Assembly (NCBI RefSeq): GCF_000027125.1
Contig: NC_017626.1
From: Escherichia coli 042
GTDB taxonomy: Bacteria; Pseudomonadota; Gammaproteobacteria; Enterobacterales; Enterobacteriaceae
Reading direction: 5' to 3' (one strand)
Length of the DNA: 64,000 nucleotides
The position numbers were made by a program, and so were the translations under genes. The notes beneath the pieces were generated by a model, which was not told where the DNA came from, did not search any database, and saw only the letters and a program-made list of their open reading frames with translations. Each line of letters opens with the position of its first letter. The stretch's first letter is position 1. Positions 24,805 to 45,849 of the stretch are shown here, in pieces.

Positions 24805-25278
24805 TCAAACAGGCTGCTGCCGTAGCCGATGTCGCTGCACTTTCTCGACATCCATGCACTGCAACGCCTTTGTCGGGCAGGCTTCAACACAGGCCGGTCC
24901 CGTCGCCCGATGCCAGCACAGATCGCACTTAATCGCCCTCGCCTTTTTGCGCGAAGAAACGACCTCCATCGCACCAAACGGGCAAGCCAGCATACAGCTT
25001 TTACAGCCAATGCAACGTGATTGTTCAACGAAAATATGCCCATGTTCGCGGCTTATCGCGTCAACAGGGCAGACATTCGCGCACGGTGCATCTTCACACT
25101 GATGGCAGGCTACTGCCGTGGTCCAGCTGTGGTCTTTAATAACACGAATACGGGAAATAAACTCGTCTGGTGACAACGCAGCGCAATCCTGATTTTCCTG
25201 ATGCGACACTGCGCAAGCCACTTCACAGGTACGGCAACCGATACATTTCGTCGCATCTGCAATAATAAACCGGTTCAT
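24805..25278 (-). CDS. ysaA: 4Fe-4S ferredoxin-type protein YsaA
   Basis: ~157 aa with multiple CxxCxxCxxxCP iron-sulfur motifs; start Met uncertain by 2 codons. Confidence 0.88.
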   Translation of the reverse strand: MNRFIIADATKCIGCRTCEVACAVSHQENQDCAALSPDEFISRIRVIKDHSWTTAVACHQCEDAPCANVCPVDAISREHGHIFVEQSRCIGCKSCMLACPFGAMEVVSSRKKARAIKCDLCWHRATGPACVEACPTKALQCMDVEKVQRHRLRQQPV

Positions 25279-32937: not shown

Positions 32938-33790
32938 TCATCCGTTAGGGATTTATGAAAAAGCGCTGGCGAAAGATCTCTCCTGGCCGGAGCGGCTGGT
33001 GCTGGCAAAAAGCTGCGGCTTTGATTTTGTCGAAATGTCGGTGGATGAAACTGACGAGCGTCTGTCACGCCTTGACTGGAGCGCCACACAAAGGACTTCG
33101 CTGGTTGCCGCGATGATCGAAACGGGTGTTGCCATTCCGTCAATGTGCCTGTCCGCACATCGTCGCTTTCCCTTTGGCAGCCGGGACAAGGCGGTGCGCG
33201 AACGGGCGCGGGAAATCATGAGTAAAGCGATTCGCCTGGCGCGCGATCTCGGCATTCGCACCATTCAACTGGCGGGTTATGACGTCTATTACGAAGACCA
33301 CGACGAAGGCACCCAGCAACGTTTTGCTGAAGGGCTGGCGTGGGCGGTCGAACAGGCGGCGGCATCACAAGTAATGCTGGCGGTGGAGATTATGGATACC
33401 GCGTTTATGAACTCCATCAGCAAATGGAAAAAGTGGGACGAGATGCTCGCCTCGCCGTGGTTCACCGTCTACCCGGACGTCGGCAACCTCAGCGCCTGGG
33501 GCAATGATGTTCCCGCCGAACTGAAACTGGGCATTGACCGTATTGCCGCAATCCATCTGAAAGACACCCTGCCAGTCACCGGGCAAAGTCCCGGACAGTT
33601 CCGTGATGTGCCGTTTGGCGAAGGCTGCGTCGATTTCGTTGGCATCTTCAAAACGCTGCATGAACTGAACTATCGCGGTTCTTTCCTGATTGAGATGTGG
33701 ACCGAAAAAGCCAAAGAGCCGGTGCTGGAGATTATTCAGGCGCGGCGCTGGATTGAAGCGCGTATGCAGGAGGCTGGATTTATATGTTAG
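32930..33790 (+). CDS. sgbU: L-xylulose-5-phosphate 3-epimerase
   Basis: 286 aa from GTG 32930 ([23 protein letters not shown]...); overlaps sgbH stop by 8 bp; track ORF over-extended upstream. Confidence 0.9.
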
Positions 33791-34479
33791 AGCAACTGAA
33801 AGCCGACGTGCTGGCGGCAAATCTGGCACTTCCCGCTCACCATCTGGTGACGTTCACCTGGGGCAATGTCAGCGCGGTAGACGAAACGCGGCAATGGATG
33901 GTAATCAAACCTTCCGGCGTCGAGTACGACGTGATGACCGCCGACGATATGGTGGTGGTTGAGATAGCCAGCGGCAAGGTGGTGGAAGGTAGCAAAAAGC
34001 CCTCGTCCGATACGCCAACGCATCTGGCGCTTTACCGTCGCTATGCCGAAATCGGTGGCATTGTGCATAACCACTCGCGCCATGCCACCATCTGGTCACA
34101 GGCCGGGCTGGATCTCCCCGCCTGGGGCACCACGCACGCTGATTATTTCTATGGCGCAATCCCCTGCACGCGACAGATGACCGCAGAGGAGATCAACGGC
34201 GAGTATGAATACCAGACCGGCGAAGTGATCATTGAAACTTTCGAAGAACGCGGCAGGAGTCCGGCGCAAATCCCGGCGGTGCTGGTGCATTCTCACGGCC
34301 CGTTCGCATGGGGTGAAAACGCCGCCGATGCGGTGCATAATGCCGTAGTACTGGAAGAATGCGCCTATATGGGCCTGTTCTCGCGCCAGCTTGCGCCACA
34401 GCTCCCTGCGATGCAAAACGAACTGTTGGATAAGCACTACCTGCGTAAGCATGGGGCCAATGCCTATTACGGGCAGTAA
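33784..34479 (+). CDS. sgbE: L-ribulose-5-phosphate 4-epimerase
   Basis: 231 aa class II aldolase/adducin fold, [30 protein letters not shown]... Confidence 0.93.
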
Positions 34480-34510
34480 TCCCTCACGCCGGGGCTTCAT
34501 TGCCCCGGCA

Positions 34511-35326
34511 CTACGAATTGATATGTTCCTTGCTGTAACGCCGCTTCCACGCTGCTGGCGTTAAACCAGTGTGTTTGCGAAAAATCTGCCGGAAATAGCC
34601 AACGTCATTAAACCCGCACAACGCCGCCACTTCCGTGAGCGATCGCGCTTCGCTAATTAACAGCTTTTCGGCTTCGCGCACTCGCTGGCGATGGATTGCT
34701 TCTGTTAACGTCAGATGAAACACCCGCCGATAGACGCGCCCAAGATAATCGGCATTGCAGTACAGCTCGCGGGCTAAAAGCGCCGTGGAAAGCGGGCGAT
34801 GATATTGCGTGCGGATCAGTTTCTGCGCTTTCCAGGCAAGCGTGGTACCTGCGGCATCGGCCTGTTCATCAAGACGCGCGTCACGGGTGAGTTGCTGCAA
34901 AATCAGCAGCACAATAAACTCCAGCGCCGGAGTGCGCTGATGCTTTTCCTGTTCGCTTAAGAACTGGCGAAACAGGGCCACCAGCGCCTGCGGATCGGCA
35001 ACCTTCGTTTGTTGCGGCACGCTAAGATGAGTGAGCCAGCGCGGGTCGCTATCCGGCGCTTTAACCTCAAAATGCAGCCAGTAAAATTTGAGATCGGCGG
35101 GAAAATCCTCTACCCCAACATGCTGTCGGTTCGGCCAGAGTAATAAACTCTCTCCCGCATCGACCAGAAATATCCGCTCTTCTTCCTGAATCGCTAATCG
35201 ACCTTTTTCGACAAAGATAATTTCCCATGACTCCAGCCGCCTTGCCGGATGCCTCCCTACGCCACGGGAAATAAATAATCCACCATTTTGCACTTTAATC
35301 GGTAACGTCATGGATAATTCGAGCAT
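34511..35326 (-). CDS. AraC-family transcriptional regulator (N-terminal cupin-like sensor, C-terminal double HTH)
   Basis: 271 aa; C-terminal AraC signature region (...DYLGRVYRRVFHLTLTEAIHRQRVREAEKLL...FNDVGYFRQIFRKHTGLTPAAWKRR). Not part of the recalled K-12 gene order between sgbE and yiaT. Confidence 0.85.
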   Translation of the reverse strand: MLELSMTLPIKVQNGGLFISRGVGRHPARRLESWEIIFVEKGRLAIQEEERIFLVDAGESLLLWPNRQHVGVEDFPADLKFYWLHFEVKAPDSDPRWLTHLSVPQQTKVADPQALVALFRQFLSEQEKHQRTPALEFIVLLILQQLTRDARLDEQADAAGTTLAWKAQKLIRTQYHRPLSTALLARELYCNADYLGRVYRRVFHLTLTEAIHRQRVREAEKLLISEARSLTEVAALCGFNDVGYFRQIFRKHTGLTPAAWKRRYSKEHINS

Positions 35327-35348
35327 TGATATGTAATTTCCCGCTTAT

Positions 35349-35402
35349 TCATTAATGATTAAACACATTACCTTTTGATTATTAATCAAAAACATTAATT
35401 TC
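35349..35402. promoter_or_regulatory. Palindromic AT-rich sites in the divergent AraC / transporter promoter region
   Basis: TCATTAATGA (35349-35358) and TTGATTA-T-TAATCAA (35376-35390) palindromes plus further ATTAAT repeats; seen directly. Confidence 0.4.
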
Positions 35403-35551
35403 ACCTGATCCAATTCACACTTTTAAATTCAGGTCGGAATCGTCACCTTTTTTTACTCTTTTCTCGCCTTGTTGATATTCCCGTTCACGGCAGAATTAAT
35501 CATGTCATTGCAATAAAACTAAAAATTGCACCCTATTCACGAGGAATATCT

Positions 35552-36952
35552 ATGACCTCTACACCGATTACTACCGCTGATATCGCTAAAGGTAAAATTG
35601 ACGATGCGTTATCTGTACGGGAAAAAATAGGCTACGGCCTGGGTGACGCAGGCGGCACCGTAATAACTTGCCTGATCATGAACTTTCTCACCTTTTTCTA
35701 CACCGACGTTTTTGGCTTAACTCCGGCGCTGGTCGGCACGCTGTTTATTGCACTGCGCGTGTTTGATGCCATCTCCGACCCGGTGATGGGCGTCATTGCC
35801 GACCGGACGCAAAGTCACTGGGGGCGCTTTCGTCCGTGGCAGTTATGGATTGCCATTCCCATCGGCATTATCGGCATCCTGACGTTCACCGTGCCAGATG
35901 CCAGCATGGGAGTAAAAATCGCCTGGGCGTTCGGCACTTACCTGCTCCTTTCAGTCGGTTATACCGCCATCAACGTGCCGTACTGCGCGCTGATCAACAC
36001 CATGACCACCCGCCACAATGAAGTGATCTCCTGCCAGTCCTGGCGATTCGTTCTCTGCGGTGTAGCGGGATTTCTGGTTTCGGTAGGCTTACCGTGGATG
36101 GTGGATCTCTTCGGTCAGGGTAATGCCGCGCGCGGCTATCAACTGGGCGTCGGCGTGCTGTGCGCCATCGCTGTGGTGATGTTCCTGTGCTGTTTCTTCT
36201 GGGTTCGTGAACGGGTACCACTCTCCACAATGGGGAAATTTACCCTGCGCGAACATCTTGCCGGGCTGCGAAACAACGACCAACTGCTGCTGATGCTGGT
36301 CATGTCTTTCCTGCTGATTAACGTCTTTAATATTCGCGGCGGTGGGTATATGTACTTCATTACCTACGTCTTACAAGGCAGTACGGGCTACACGTCGCTG
36401 TTCTTCACTATGGTCACCTTCGCCTCCATTATCGGCTCGGTGATTGTCAGCCCGTTAACGCGACGTTTCGATACCGTCAAAATTTATTACTACACCAACC
36501 TGCTCCTCGCTTCACTGGCGGTGTTGATGTGGTTCCTGCCCTCCGGCCCGGCTTATCAAACGCTGTGGCTGGCGGTGATCCTCGGTAATGGCGTGATTCT
36601 TGGCTTCACATTGCCACTGCACTTCTCATTGATGGCCTTTGCCGATGACTACGGCGAGTGGAAAACCCGCGTACGTTCTTCCGGCATGAACTTCGCCTTC
36701 AATCTGTTTTTCATCAAACTGGCCTGGGCCTCCAGCGCCGGGATCATCAGCCTGCTGTTTATTTTTGTCGCCTACCAGCCAGGCGTAGAAAACCAGACCG
36801 CCAGTTCGCTTGGCGGGATCGCGGCGATGGAAACATTGCTGCCTGCGCTGTTCCACCTGCTGCTGGCGATGGCGATCCGCTTTTGCAAACTCAATAACCC
36901 TATGATGTCACGCATTGCTAGCGACCTGCGTCAGCGTCATGTACAGCCTTAA
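35552..36952 (+). CDS. GPH-family (glycoside-pentoside-hexuronide) sugar:cation symporter
   Basis: 466 aa, 12-TM MFS-like; N-terminal GYGLGD...G and [18 protein letters not shown] motifs typical of MelB/YicJ/YihO-type GPH transporters. Confidence 0.85.
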
Positions 36953-36962
36953 GGAGCACAAG

Positions 36963-38933
36963 ATGAACATTTCGGAAGTCGATCTGCATAAACTGACGGT
37001 CAGCGATCCGTTCCTCGGTCAGTACCAACAACTGGTCCGCGACGTGGTGATTCCTTATCAGTGGGATGCCTTGAACGATCGTATCCCAGAAGCGGAACCC
37101 AGCCATGCGATTGAAAACTTTCGCATTGCCGCAGGACTGCAAGACGGTGAATTTTACGGGATGGTGTTTCAGGACAGCGACGTCGCCAAATGGCTGGAAG
37201 CGGTAGCCTGGTCGCTGTGCCAGAAGCCGGATGCCGAACTGGAAAAAACCGCTGACGAGGTAATCGAACTGGTCGCTTCCGCCCAGTGCGAAGATGGCTA
37301 TCTCAATACTTACTTTACGGTAAAAGCGCCCGAAGAACGCTGGAGCAATCTGGCGGAGTGTCATGAACTTTACTGCGCCGGTCATCTGATTGAAGCCGGA
37401 GTCGCCTTCTTCCAGGCCACGGGCAAGCGGCGCTTGCTGGAAGTGGTTTGCCGTCTGGCCGATCATATCGACAGCGTATTTGGTCCAGGTGAAAGTAAGT
37501 TACACGGTTATCCTGGTCACCCGGAAATTGAACTGGCACTAATGCGCCTGTATGAAGTGACCGAAGAGCCGCGCTACCTGGCGCTGGCGAACTATTTTGT
37601 CGAACAGCGTGGTGCGCAACCGCACTATTACGACCAGGAATATGAAAAGCGCGGGCAGACCTCGCACTGGCACACCTACGGCCCGGCGTGGATGGTGAAA
37701 GATAAAGCCTACAGCCAGGCGCATTTACCCATCGCACAGCAACAAACCGCCATCGGACATGCAGTACGCTTTGTATATCTGATGACTGGCGTCGCACATC
37801 TGGCGCGTTTAAGTCACGATGAAAGCAAGCGTCAGGATTGCCTGCGGCTGTGGAACAATATGGCCCAGCGTCAGTTATATATTACCGGCGGCATTGGCTC
37901 ACAAAGCAGCGGCGAAGCGTTCAGCAGCGATTACGATCTGCCGAATGACACGGTATACGCCGAAAGCTGTGCTTCCATCGGCCTGATGATGTTCGCCCGG
38001 CGAATGCTGGAAATGGAAGGCGACAGTCAATATGCCGATGTGATGGAGCGCGCACTGTACAACACCGTGCTCGGCGGCATGGCGCTGGATGGCAAACATT
38101 TCTTCTATGTGAATCCGCTGGAAGTGCATCCAAAAACGTTAAAATTCAACCATATCTACGATCACGTTAAGCCGATCCGCCAGCGTTGGTTTGGTTGCGC
38201 TTGTTGTCCGCCAAATATCGCCCGCGTGCTAACCTCGATTGGTCATTATCTCTACACGCCGCGTGAAGATGCGTTGTATATCAACATCTACGCAGGAAAC
38301 AGCATGGAAGTGCCGGTAGAAAATGGCACGCTGCGTCTGCGGGTTAGCGGAAACTATCCGTGGCAGGAGCAGGTGACGATTGCGGTTGAATCGCCCCAGC
38401 CGGTGCGTCATACGCTGGCTTTACGTCTGCCGGACTGGTGCACACAGCCGCAGATCATATTGAATGGGGAAGAGGTCGGGCAGGATATTCGTAAAGGGTA
38501 TTTGCACATTACCCGCGAATGGCAGGAGGGCGATACGCTGAATCTGACTTTGCCGATGCCGGTACGCCGCGTTTACGGTAACCCTCAGGTGCGTCACGTC
38601 GCCGGAAAAGTGGCGATTCAGCGCGGCCCGCTGGTGTATTGCCTGGAACAGGCCGACAACGGCGAGTCACTGCATAACCTGTGGCTGCCCGCCGATGCGC
38701 CATTTACGACATTTGAAGGCAAGGGATTGTTCCGCCATAAGATCTTAATCCAGGCTCCGGGTTACCGGTATGAACAGAGCAATCCAGAGCAGCAACCGCT
38801 GTGGCATTACGACAGCGCGCCAGCCAAACGCCAGCCGCAAACCCTGACCTTTATCCCGTGGTTTAGCTGGGCCAACCGGGGTGAAGGCGAAATGCGGATC
38901 TGGGTGAATGAGGAAAAGCATTGCCATCCGTAG
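36963..38933 (+). CDS. Glycoside hydrolase family 127 (DUF1680) protein, putative beta-L-arabinofuranosidase-like
   Basis: 656 aa from ATG 36963 with AAGGAG SD 7 bp upstream; Cys-rich segment WFGCACCPPNIARV resembles the recalled zinc/cysteine active-site region of HypBA1-type GH127 enzymes. Family assignment from memory. Confidence 0.7.
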   Translation: MNISEVDLHKLTVSDPFLGQYQQLVRDVVIPYQWDALNDRIPEAEPSHAIENFRIAAGLQDGEFYGMVFQDSDVAKWLEAVAWSLCQKPDAELEKTADEVIELVASAQCEDGYLNTYFTVKAPEERWSNLAECHELYCAGHLIEAGVAFFQATGKRRLLEVVCRLADHIDSVFGPGESKLHGYPGHPEIELALMRLYEVTEEPRYLALANYFVEQRGAQPHYYDQEYEKRGQTSHWHTYGPAWMVKDKAYSQAHLPIAQQQTAIGHAVRFVYLMTGVAHLARLSHDESKRQDCLRLWNNMAQRQLYITGGIGSQSSGEAFSSDYDLPNDTVYAESCASIGLMMFARRMLEMEGDSQYADVMERALYNTVLGGMALDGKHFFYVNPLEVHPKTLKFNHIYDHVKPIRQRWFGCACCPPNIARVLTSIGHYLYTPREDALYINIYAGNSMEVPVENGTLRLRVSGNYPWQEQVTIAVESPQPVRHTLALRLPDWCTQPQIILNGEEVGQDIRKGYLHITREWQEGDTLNLTLPMPVRRVYGNPQVRHVAGKVAIQRGPLVYCLEQADNGESLHNLWLPADAPFTTFEGKGLFRHKILIQAPGYRYEQSNPEQQPLWHYDSAPAKRQPQTLTFIPWFSWANRGEGEMRIWVNEEKHCHP

Positions 38934-39050
38934 GTTGGATAAGGCACTCGCGCCGCATCCAACGTAAGGAGCACATTGCCTGATGCGACGCTTAACACGT
39001 CTTATCAGGCATACAAGTCGGTGCGAGAGTGTAGGCCAGCCGCACCGACA
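38934..39050. repeat. REP/BIME palindromic elements
   Basis: cgccgcatcc...tgcctgatgcgacgcttaacacgtcttatcaggcatac... REP-type palindromes between the GH127 gene and yiaT. Confidence 0.65.
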
Positions 39051-39062
39051 TCCACCGGTGAA

Positions 39063-39803
39063 TTAAAAACGCCAGCTCACGCCGGTGACAAAGGTAAAAC
39101 TCTCATTACGATCAATCATCGGGCTGTCGGTAACCTCTTCCGGCAGCTCGCTGTATCCTGCGCTCGCCATCAATACGACGTGCTCTCCTATCGGGTATTT
39201 TGCCGTCAGGCTGACATAGGGCACCCAGGCATCCTGCGCGGAATAACTTGCCAGACCGCTACGACGGGACTCACTCTCTGAAATGCCATAGTAATAGTCA
39301 CTGAAATTCTCGTCATAATAGAGAACGCCCAGCGCAGGTGTCAGCGACAGGCGACCTATCTGCATTTTGTGGAATACCGATAGCTCCCCCACCCAGCCGT
39401 TGCTGTTATCCAGAACGTCCGCAGCCGCAGAGGCTTTCACGGTTCCCCAACGCTCGTGGTGATACCAGGCAACCCCCGCCATAGCCGTACTATCACGCTT
39501 ATCAAGCTGTTGCATGGCATAATCGTCATTATCGGTAGGGTCAAATTCCAGCGGCATCCAGGATGCGGTCAGGCTAAGTTCATTTTTTTCACTTTGCGAC
39601 AGAATAAAACCTAACGTGGTCTGACGAACATAAAAAGTATCACCTTCATAGCTAATCAGCGGAATTGCCTTTGTATTTTCATTATAACCGCGATAAGGCG
39701 ATTCATTATAAGCCGCACCAGCACCAATGGATAATTCAGAAGCAGTTGCGCTTGCCATAAAAGGCAACGCAAATAACGCCACAATATTGCGGTTAATTAA
39801 CAT
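39063..39803 (-). CDS. yiaT: Outer membrane protein YiaT (MipA/OmpV family)
   Basis: 246 aa with signal peptide MLINRNIVALFALPFMASATA and C-terminal aromatic residue (…SWRF). Confidence 0.9.
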   Translation of the reverse strand: MLINRNIVALFALPFMASATASELSIGAGAAYNESPYRGYNENTKAIPLISYEGDTFYVRQTTLGFILSQSEKNELSLTASWMPLEFDPTDNDDYAMQQLDKRDSTAMAGVAWYHHERWGTVKASAAADVLDNSNGWVGELSVFHKMQIGRLSLTPALGVLYYDENFSDYYYGISESESRRSGLASYSAQDAWVPYVSLTAKYPIGEHVVLMASAGYSELPEEVTDSPMIDRNESFTFVTGVSWRF

Positions 39804-39926
39804 GTCCGGTATTCCATTTTAAAATAAGATAAAAAAGAGTCGGCATAGTAATGCTTACAATTTCTCCGGTGCAAGATTCATATTTATATAGTAATATATA
39901 AAATTATATATAATTGGGCTGTTGCG

Positions 39927-40901
39927 ATGACAAAATTACAACTTAAGTACCGGGAGTTAAAAATTATCTCGGTAATCGCTGCCAGTGAAAATATCAGCCA
40001 TGCCGCGACTGTACTTGGCATCGCACAGGCCAACGTCAGCAAATATCTTGCTGATTTTGAATCAAAAGTGGGTTTAAAAGTTTTTGACCGAACCACCCGA
40101 CAACTGATGCTCACACCTTTTGGCACCGCGCTATTACCGTACATCAACGACATGCTGGACAGAAACGAGCAGCTTAATAATTTTATTGCAGATTATAAGC
40201 ATGAGAAACGTGGTCGGGTCACCATCTACGCCCCAACCGGCATAATTACCTATTTATCCAAACATGTAATCGATAAAATTAAAGATATCGGTGATATCAC
40301 CTTATCGCTAAAAACCTGCAATCTTGAGCGTAATGCCTTTTATGAAGGCGTCGAATTTCCTGATGATTGTGATGTTTTAATCAGCTATGCCCCACCAAAA
40401 GATGAATCGCTGGTTGCCAGTTTTATTACCCAATATGCCGTAACCGCTTATGCCAGCCAGCGCTATCTTGAGAAACATCCCATTAGCCGTCCTGACGAAC
40501 TCGAACATCACTCCTGTATTTTGATCGACTCGATGATGATCGACGACGCGAATATCTGGCGCTTCAACGTCGCCGGGAGTAAAGAGGTGCGGGATTATCG
40601 CGTGAAGGGAAATGACGTTTGCGACAACACGCAATCGGCGCTGGAGCTGGCACGAAATCACCTGGGGATTGTGTTTGCGCCAGACAAAAGTGTGCAGAGC
40701 GATCTGCAAGACGGCACGCTGGTGCCCTGCTTTCAGCAACCCTATGAATGGTGGCTGGATCTGGTGGCTATCTTCCGTAAACGGGAATACCAGCCCTGGC
40801 GGGTCCAGTATGTGCTGGATGAAATGCTGCGTGAAATTCGCCACCAGCTTGCTCAGTCGCAGCAACTGCGGCCTGAACAAGCGGCGGAAAGCGAAGATTA
40901 A
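39927..40901 (+). CDS. yiaU: LysR-family transcriptional regulator YiaU
   Basis: 324 aa, N-terminal LysR HTH (…[23 protein letters not shown]…). Confidence 0.9.
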
Positions 40902-42779: not shown

Positions 42780-42885
42780 GTGCGCTTTGTTTATGCCGGA
42801 TGCGGCGTGTACGCCTTATCCGGCCTACGGTCAGGTCCCCGTAGGCATGATAAGACGAGTAAGCGTCGCATCAGGCAATGAATAC
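42780..42885. repeat. REP/BIME cluster downstream of aldB
   Basis: gccggatgcggcgtgtacgccttatccggcctacg and cgtaggcatgataagacgagtaagcgtcgcatcaggca palindromes. Confidence 0.7.
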
Positions 42886-44553: not shown

Positions 44554-45849
44554 CTACAGCGGGTAATGTGCGACGTACACGGCTTGCTGGTCATTAATTT
44601 TCTTCTCTTGCGCAAACCCTTCTTTAACAATCGTCCGTAAATCAGCTCGAGCCGTATTATCAGAGACGCCCAGGCTCGCGCTAATTTCAGCAACTGTGTA
44701 CTCTTTCCCCGGATTGGCGAGCATCACATTCAGGAGCGTTACCTGGCGAGGATTCAAGCGTTTAAGCACGCCAGAGCTAAACAGCACACTATCGAATTTT
44801 GCGCTTCGTTGCATAATTTCATCAATATGCTGCTGCCAGTTTTGCAAAGCACGTTTAATGACACCCGCCTGATAATCAAGGAAATAAGTCAGATCCATAC
44901 CATCTGATTCAGTGTACTGGCAGCTGGCGGCATATTTGACCGGTGCAGCATGAAGCAAACGGCTGATGGAAATATATTTAAAGACATCGTAGCCCGATTT
45001 CAGCATATACCAGTAAAACAGTGCCCGACTGGTGCGCCCGTTGCCATCGCGAAATGGATGTTCATGGGCCAGCATAAAATGCAGAATGCAGGCACGGATT
45101 AACGGGTGAATATACCCTTCATGGCTGTTTAACCACTGGCAAACTTTTTCCAGCCGTTCCAGCAACAATGCCGCAGCGGGCGGTTGGTGCACAATATTGC
45201 CGTCATAGTCGGCGATCACAACATCATCTGTTTCACGAAATTCTCCCGGACGATATTTCGCGTCATTGATTCCACCCATACCAATGGCATGTAACTGGCG
45301 AATAAGCGCAGTCGTCAGCGGTTCTGCGAGTAAGTGCGGAATTTCCGCCATCAGCCGGGCATTTCCCGCAATCATATGCTCGTCTTCAGTGCGTGGCGAC
45401 CGCCCTGTTTCCAGCATTTTTCTCGCCACCAGCGTTGTAGTATTCGCACCTTCCAGCTGGGAGCTGGTGATCGGCTCTTCCAGGCGTAACTGGCTTAACT
45501 CGGCTCCGGCCCCGCGTAACCGTTCAGTCTGATCTTTCAGCGCCAGCGCGGTAGCACGTTTGTCGACAAGCTCGCACGCTTCTGCAATCACCGGGGTAAT
45601 GTTGAATCCGGCCTGTTCACCCGCTTCATTGCAATAATTAATTCGTTGGATCGCCGCGTTGCGCGCCAGACGGGTAAGCGTCCACGCCACATCGACGTTT
45701 TCTCCTTTTTTGATGCGGTACTGCAACTCATCAAAAGGTAGATAACGTCCTTTTTCATCGGTAACCCGGTTAAAGCGCAGGTGGGCCTGGAGTTCCTCAC
45801 CCGATAAGTGTGATAAAGGAATAAGTCCGGGAGGTGATTTGATAGCCAT
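44554..45849 (-). CDS. Fic-family protein (class II, internal inhibitory helix) with C-terminal wHTH-like domain
   Basis: 431 aa; canonical Fic active-site motif [12 protein letters not shown]; upstream inhibitory-type motif SSQLEG ([S/T]xxxE[G/N]); C-terminal segment [39 protein letters not shown] resembles a winged HTH. Not in the recalled K-12 aldB-yiaY gene order. Confidence 0.85.

Follow-up and report, generated by a model that had tools for sequence, protein, structure and literature searches.

Catabolic units of Escherichia coli K-12 such as yicJI, yagGH, uidAB and melAB pair a GPH-family symporter with a cytoplasmic glycosidase, and GPH transporters of the YagG and YicJ type carry varied glycoside cargoes. 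In glycoside hydrolase family 127 (GH127), the enzyme Ara127N of Geobacillus stearothermophilus T6 (structures 4QJY and 4QK0) is reportedly encoded by the last gene of a large L-arabinan utilization cluster that is served by ATP-binding cassette (ABC) transporters. In Bifidobacterium longum an intracellular GH127 enzyme splits imported Araf-beta1,2-Araf (beta-Ara2; Araf, arabinofuranose) that has been freed by secreted enzymes from plant hydroxyproline-rich glycoproteins (PMC7263609). We compared these systems with a three-gene module at positions 34511-38933 of a 64,000-nucleotide stretch of E. coli 042 DNA (contig NC_017626.1; the whole stretch is called the window), which lies between sgbE and yiaT and encodes an AraC-family regulator, a GPH-family symporter and a GH127 enzyme. 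With moderate confidence we read the module as a native, vertically inherited unit that is activated by its regulator and CRP and that imports and cleaves a glycoside, likely a beta-L-arabinofuranoside. Our confidence in its architecture and evolutionary history, taken as a separate question, is high.

The module had been described in an original prediction made from the DNA letters and a list of open reading frames (ORFs). All three ORFs that it claimed were found at the coordinates and in the orientations it gave, and each was intact. The AraC/XylS-family regulator gene (34511-35326, minus strand, 271 amino acids) is divergent from an operon made up of the GPH-family cation symporter gene (35552-36952, plus strand, 466 amino acids) and the GH127 glycoside hydrolase gene (36963-38933, plus strand, 656 amino acids). 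Homology searches bore out the claimed families (AraC, GPH symporter and GH127/DUF1680) with E-values across the module from 1e-19 to 1e-236, which excludes chance matches. The module genes are routinely annotated already and are named "AraC family transcriptional regulator", "MFS transporter" and "glycoside hydrolase family 127 protein" in RefSeq. Likewise, every component family and the logic of the operon, that is a GPH symporter, a cytoplasmic glycosidase and an AraC-type activator, is already well known. A search of the three module proteins for defense systems with PADLOC returned zero matches.

The GH127 enzyme was evaluated against domain models and solved structures. The mechanical ORF list begins the third gene at a TTG at 36915; ATG 36963 was preferred because an AAGGAG Shine-Dalgarno sequence precedes it, it is the RefSeq start and structural homology begins at residue 11. 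This Shine-Dalgarno sequence shares nucleotides with the TAA that ends the symporter gene, suggesting that translation of the GH127 gene is probably coupled to that of the symporter gene; the gap between the two genes is 10 nt. All of the Pfam GH127 domains were matched, namely the catalytic (alpha/alpha)6 domain (PF07944, 7e-113), the middle domain (PF20736, 2.6e-23) and the C-terminal domain (PF20737, 1.3e-25), which span residues 12-649 and place the protein among the three-domain GH127 enzymes. The closest solved relative was 4QJY from G. stearothermophilus (E = 2e-236, 790 bits, about 55% identity over 630 residues), and matches were also obtained to HypBA1 of B. longum (3WKW; E = 1e-152, 513 bits), 6EX6 (4e-116) and 5MQO (7e-94, 319 bits). 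Together the Pfam domains and the 4QJY and HypBA1 matches make the GH127 assignment solid. The Cys-rich WFGCACCPPN segment that had been pointed out in the 656-residue protein was located at residues 409-418.

In HypBA1 the nucleophile is Cys417, the acid/base is Glu322 and zinc is held by a Cys3-Glu site that includes Glu338, Cys340 and Cys418 (PMC8106489). The equivalents of HypBA1 Glu322, Glu338, Cys340, Cys415, Cys417 and Cys418 in the E. coli enzyme are E318, E334, C336, C412, C414 and C415. From this alignment E318 is predicted to be the acid/base, E334, C336 and C415 the zinc ligands and C414 the nucleophile, with C412 also conserved. The five Cys/Glu positions of the zinc site and the nucleophile were invariant in 82 of 82 orthologues; this count read residue 319 instead of E318, and the conservation of E318 is taken from the 4QJY and 3WKW alignments. 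Thus the E. coli enzyme shares with HypBA1 its family, its three domains, its catalytic Cys/Glu/zinc site and an intracellular place of action after import (PMC7263609, PMC8106489), and differs from it in sequence, at about 40% identity as judged by eye from the alignment. Its CACC motif and Glu residues are likewise conserved in Ara127N.

A scan of the GH127 protein for a hydrophobic segment or signal peptide detected none. The lack of a hydrophobic segment argues that the enzyme is cytoplasmic, and an enzyme with neither a signal peptide nor a membrane segment needs its substrate to be imported. The gene is under strong purifying selection, with a ratio of nonsynonymous to synonymous substitution rates (dN/dS) of 0.03-0.075 overall and about 0.07 within E. 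coli. The exact GH127 protein sequence of the window was recorded on at least 1000 contigs. As a side observation, the synonymous distance (dS) of the window allele from the BL21 and O157 alleles was about 0.14-0.15 and the 5-kb region was matched at 99% or more by only 2 of 5288 genomes; by these two values the source strain would seem to come from an E. coli lineage that has been sampled less.

The symporter scored 330.7 bits against the GPH family model TIGR00792 (cut-off 231.35; TC 2.A.2), matched the Pfam MFS_2 domain at 7.8e-73 and showed about 10 hydrophobic segments in a crude hydropathy scan, in agreement with a polytopic membrane protein. Its best scores among models of named K-12 transporters were to the YagG and YicJ-type models. 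As an equivalog it was rejected by each of the models tried: YagG (355 bits against a cut-off of 610), YicJ-type PRK11462 (322 against 836), MelB (207 against 456) and UidB (191 against 528). Because these scores lie under the cut-offs, the models place the symporter in the YagG/YicJ-like subgroup as a distinct orthologous group and not as an equivalog of a named K-12 transporter. The module therefore follows the symporter-glycosidase logic of yicJI, yagGH, uidAB and melAB but differs from them in that the partner of the symporter is a GH127 enzyme and not a GH31, GH43, GH2 or GH4 enzyme.

The regulator carries an N-terminal AraC-type cupin (AraC_binding, 1.5e-8) and a C-terminal double helix-turn-helix (HTH_18, 4e-19; HTH_AraC, 5e-8), the domain arrangement of the AraC/XylS family. 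AraC itself was the best NCBIfam match and was rejected as an identity, at 61.2 bits against a cut-off of 208.

We propose that the regulator would sense a sugar ligand, its presumed inducer, and together with cyclic AMP (cAMP)-CRP would activate the operon. A small glycoside would enter through the GPH symporter with a cation as the presumed coupling ion, and the cytoplasmic GH127 cysteine glycosidase would cleave it, most likely by removing a non-reducing beta-L-arabinofuranose. Candidate substrates would be Araf-beta1,2-Araf or Araf-beta-hydroxyproline fragments of plant hydroxyproline-rich glycoproteins, and the released L-arabinose could then enter the araBAD pathway. Uptake plus hydrolysis, possibly of beta-L-arabinofuranosides, was also what the original prediction had put forward, and the GH127 similarity together with the upstream GPH symporter supports it, with these glycosides as the leading candidate. 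We consider it fairly probable that the substrate class is a small beta-L-arabinofuranoside. This class is favored because the enzyme scores 790 and 513 bits to beta-L-arabinofuranosidases (EC 3.2.1.185) and only 319 bits to 5MQO, and because of the B. longum precedent.

The comparison with B. longum also sets limits on the model. The B. longum cluster encodes an ABC importer and secreted GH121 and GH43 enzymes, whereas the E. coli locus encodes a single GPH symporter, an AraC-family regulator and no secreted enzyme. A GH121 arabinobiosidase, a GH43 enzyme and a beta-Ara2 ABC importer were each looked for beside the GH127 gene and were not present, the neighbors being sgbE and yiaT. By analogy the module would resemble only the last, intracellular step of a B. 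longum-type utilization cluster. Since E. coli is without the secreted GH121/GH43 partners, it would depend on fragments freed by plants or by other (gut) microbes.

Several further points, in addition to the missing importer and secreted partners, weigh against the proposed function. Ara127N, the enzyme of the closest solved relative, was itself reportedly assigned mainly by homology to HypBA1. The GH127 gene is frameshifted in at least one E. coli strain, so the unit is dispensable. A literature search for enzymology, transport, growth, regulation or expression of an enterobacterial GH127 operon found none, and returned pangenome and CAZy counts only (PMC11879602, bioRxiv 10.1101/2021.10.19.464957, PMC4561680). 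In addition, GH127 is a family of several specificities, which include carrageenan 3,6-anhydro-D-galactosidases (PMC5698469), and the only NCBIfam match of the E. coli enzyme was the aceric acid hydrolase model.

These specificities, along with the varied cargoes of YagG/YicJ-type transporters, lend some weight to the best surviving alternative, in which the same uptake and hydrolysis architecture serves another rare glycoside, such as an aceric-acid-type branched sugar, another furanoside or a plant secondary-metabolite glycoside. The aceric acid hydrolase match, however, reached 452 bits against a cut-off of 950 and aligned residues 252-649 only, and on this score the enzyme was rejected as an aceric acid hydrolase equivalog. 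Carrageenan is an implausible substrate for gut or plant-associated Enterobacteriaceae. The higher scores to 4QJY and HypBA1 than to 5MQO, given above, also speak against another substrate. We therefore regard a different glycoside as unlikely, though still a serious contender, and retain a small beta-L-arabinofuranoside as the probable substrate.

To locate regulatory sequences, the divergent control region (35327-35551, 32% GC) was evaluated by phylogenetic footprinting, in which the orthologous intergenic regions of 32 species were aligned. Blocks that are invariant across Enterobacteriaceae genera stand within otherwise free-drifting intergenic sequence. Nearest the regulator gene is a palindrome, TTGATTATTAATCAA (35375-35389), an inverted repeat that most genera share, with Buttiauxella, Atlantibacter and Mangrovibacter as exceptions; it may serve as an operator or belong to the promoter of the regulator gene. 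It is followed by a CRP-like site at 35401-35422, a GATC-N4-TCACA-N-TTT block with its center at 35411.5, about -91.5 from the predicted transcription start. The central GATC and the right half TCACA were invariant, and the site matched 14 of 22 positions of what we take to be the CRP consensus, with a perfect right half. On these grounds 35401-35422 is predicted to be a CRP site.

Between the CRP-like site and the operon lies a box, AGGTCGGAATCGTCACCTTTTT(T/A)TACT (35431-35458, plus strand), at about -72 to -45, which is invariant or nearly so at most positions. The box stays near-invariant while the regulator protein is only 60-85% identical across species. We infer that this box is a candidate binding site of the AraC-family regulator. 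Downstream, the conserved block CCTTGTTG holds TTGTTG (35469-35474) and a conserved GCAnAAT holds CAGAAT (35491-35496). These conserved CTTGT and GCAnAAT columns outline a weak sigma-70 promoter of the operon (35469-35496, plus strand) with a -35 element TTGTTG, a 16-nt spacer and a -10 element CAGAAT, which predicts that transcription starts near 35503. A consensus promoter scan of the control region detected no strong promoter, and the lack of a consensus promoter fits an activator-dependent promoter. Because the predicted promoter is weak and lies behind the activator box and the CRP-like site, the operon would probably be switched on by the regulator and cAMP-CRP. The consensus scan also returned 13 terminator-like sites where 5.3 +/- 2.6 were expected; almost all were intragenic and none stood where it could terminate the operon or the regulator gene. 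Footprinting was relied on in place of the consensus scan.

At the araBAD promoter the AraC sites I1-I2 lie at about -72 to -35 and CRP binds at about -93.5. The module control region copies this layout, with the box at about -72 to -45 next to the -35 region and the CRP-like site at about -91.5. It differs from araBAD in that the regulator is a distant AraC homologue (61 bits), the sites and the start are predicted, and a looping operator was not identified in the control region.

To measure how the module is distributed within the species, the sgbE-yiaT junction was surveyed in 5426 complete E. coli genomes. The module interior was present in 2313 (42.6%) and was always chromosomal and single-copy in all but one genome. 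A double-deletion scar of the K-12 type, 98-100% identical, was found in 2461 genomes (45.4%), and the remaining genomes showed other locus states. Carriers of the module include BL21(DE3), O157:H7 and ST131. In O157:H7 (Z1626) the module is kept and the whole yiaK-yiaS (lyxK/sgb) operon is lost, so that a 141-nt remnant of yiaJ (IclR family) abuts the regulator gene. Strain NRZ14408 keeps the module and has a hicAB toxin-antitoxin pair in place of yiaTUVW. In strain A32 both the module and yiaTUVW are absent and sgbE leads straight to aldB, and in strain Ec394-330266 the GH127 gene is frameshifted and yiaTUVW is gone. The sgbE-yiaTUVW neighborhood is a deletion hotspot. Published counts also describe GH127 as a variable CAZy family in E. 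coli that is near-universal in some clades and found in 30-67% of strains in others (bioRxiv 10.1101/2021.10.19.464957), and GH127 is among the genes that co-segregate with invasiveness of inflammatory bowel disease (IBD) isolates (PMC11879602).

The repeated losses through different deletions and the frameshift in Ec394-330266 could be taken to mean that E. coli holds the module as a decaying relic without current function. This is very improbable given that the window holds three intact ORFs, that dN/dS within E. coli is low, that the catalytic residues and promoter blocks are invariant and that the exact protein recurs on so many contigs.

The state of the locus in K-12 was determined by aligning K-12 with the window. 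The original prediction had held that K-12 goes straight from sgbE to yiaT. This did not stand, as K-12 keeps 34511-34614, the 3'-terminal 104 nt of the regulator gene, and then 38636-38825, 190 nt that correspond to GH127 codons 558-621, before it resumes at 39036 inside the third hairpin of a repetitive extragenic palindromic (REP) cluster. The alignment did confirm that the intact module is absent from K-12. Deletion 1 (34615-38635, 4021 bp) begins within the regulator gene, extends to GH127 codon 558 and has a junction without useful microhomology. Deletion 2 (38826-39035, 210 bp) takes the 3' end of the GH127 gene and two of the three REP hairpins, and its junction sits in a CCAGCC microhomology. 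RefSeq annotates both K-12 remnants as pseudogenes, and a K-12 strain genotype lists the order yiaS-ysaC...ysaD-yiaT (PMC12361893). Because of these pseudogenes and this published order, the K-12 pseudogenes ysaC and ysaD are the remnants of the module regulator and GH127 genes; they are nonfunctional fragments of 104 nt and 190 nt between sgbE (yiaS) and yiaT, unlike the intact genes of the window. Compared with intact alleles, the GH127 fragment of K-12 has changed at 18-20 of its 190 nt, and half of these changes are at first or second codon positions, while the intact alleles differ from one another at 5 positions over the same 190 nt. This decay indicates relaxed constraint and an old loss. 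A single pair of deletions long ago accounts for the absence of the unit from K-12 and about 45% of E. coli genomes.

The position of the module was then compared across genera. About 70 Enterobacteriaceae species have retained the regulator, symporter and GH127 genes together as a trio. In Citrobacter, Enterobacter, Lelliottia, Huaxiibacter, Pseudocitrobacter and Salmonella enterica subsp. diarizonae this trio comes immediately after sgbE, and yiaT (and yiaU) lies downstream of it, except at the Salmonella locus, where a yiaT match was not recorded within the 10-kb stretch examined. In three species yiaT is about 1-2 kb further downstream. The GC content of the module (53-55%) is similar to that of the adjacent sgb genes, and a search at the module for mobility genes (integrase, transposase) and for flanking direct or att-like repeats found none. 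Because the trio occupies the same site in other genera, K-12 holds remnants, the GC content matches and mobility genes are lacking, presence of the module at this site is the ancestral state and its absence a derived one, which arose in the K-12 lineage by deletion.

The description of the module as inserted between sgbE and yiaT was accordingly not upheld. Horizontal acquisition of an accessory module at this site in some E. coli is hardly credible: although only about 43% of complete genomes carry it and K-12 does not, REP elements and a hairpin stand at its edges and a 72% identical GH127 gene in Bradyrhizobium shows that the gene can move between lineages, the site is occupied in several other genera, K-12 holds internal fragments of both end genes, which is impossible for an empty insertion site, and the module is native-like in GC, free of integrase, transposase and att-like repeats, never plasmid-borne and single-copy in all but one genome. 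A horizontally inserted genomic island was rejected for the native-like GC, the occupied site in other genera and the K-12 gene fragments.

The trio was also found at other sites in Pantoea, Kluyvera, Buttiauxella and Enterobacillus, where its neighbors are unrelated housekeeping genes, and inspection of the neighbor genes of these relocated trios for a hint of the substrate found none. A record labeled Chryseobacterium sp. 18061 has the enterobacterial trio in a locus with about 94% DNA identity to a Citrobacter-labeled locus of the same project, and this assembly is probably mislabeled or contaminated. Several Bradyrhizobium species carry, without its symporter and regulator partners, a GH127 gene whose product shares 71-73% identity with the E. 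coli enzyme; this may reflect transfer between bacterial classes. There the GH127 gene adjoins an ORF for an S9 (oligopeptidase B-like) peptidase, a neighbor that suggests a glycopeptide context but is too weak a hint to rely on.

The REP elements claimed for the distal boundary of the module and the hairpin claimed for the proximal one were both confirmed, by folding, by recurrence of the REP core and by an Rfam score. At the proximal boundary sgbE (stop codon 34477-34479) and the regulator gene (stop codon 34511-34513) converge on a GC-rich hairpin, GCCGGGGC-N6-GCCCCGGC (34488-34509), with an 8-bp stem. The 61-nt stretch 34470-34530 folds at -24.4 kcal/mol (z = -3.3), and K-12 has kept the hairpin. 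Neither strand has a T-tract after it. Probably sgbE and the regulator gene share this hairpin as a transcript-end structure.

At the distal boundary the REP cluster (38934-39050) stands between the convergent GH127 and yiaT genes and folds into three hairpins (z = -5.0 against shuffles). These are intergenic imperfect palindromes that recur elsewhere, as is characteristic of REP/BIME (bacterial interspersed mosaic element) sequences. The middle one of the three contains an exact REP core, of which another copy lies at 42862, and 38933-39011 scored 58.7 bits against the REP-derived Rfam family naRNA4, just below the gathering score of 59.5. An Rfam scan of 33500-40200 returned this naRNA4 match and noise, and nothing else. 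Elsewhere in the window the REP core GCCTGATGCGACGCT has an exact copy at 42862-42876 and a copy with two mismatches at 25196-25210.

Further downstream, the window holds a 431-amino-acid ORF (44554-45849, minus strand) between aldB and yiaY, genes that we take to be adjacent in K-12. In the closest complete genome its product carries a Fic family annotation, and it may be another accessory gene of the window.

The added value of this analysis is modest and lies in a corrected evolutionary reading and a predicted promoter architecture. The direction of the event at this locus is corrected, from a gain in 042 to a loss in K-12. We tentatively raise the possibility that the symporter is the first GPH-family beta-L-arabinofuranoside:cation transporter, and that about half of E. 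coli and most Enterobacteriaceae scavenge beta-Ara2 or Araf-hydroxyproline from extensins. If this is true, the fragments would come from plants or from microbes such as Bifidobacterium with its GH121 enzyme, and the niche would have been overlooked because K-12 lost the genes; extensin-fragment scavenging might also underlie the link between GH127 and invasive IBD isolates (PMC11879602). A catabolic operon that is conserved in about 43% of E. coli and in most Enterobacteriaceae genera is uncharacterized, apparently because the reference strain keeps only the scars ysaC and ysaD. Should the substrate prediction hold, the operon would give E. coli a source of L-arabinose from plant glycoproteins and possibly cross-feeding with bifidobacteria, with consequences for its ecology in the gut and on plants.

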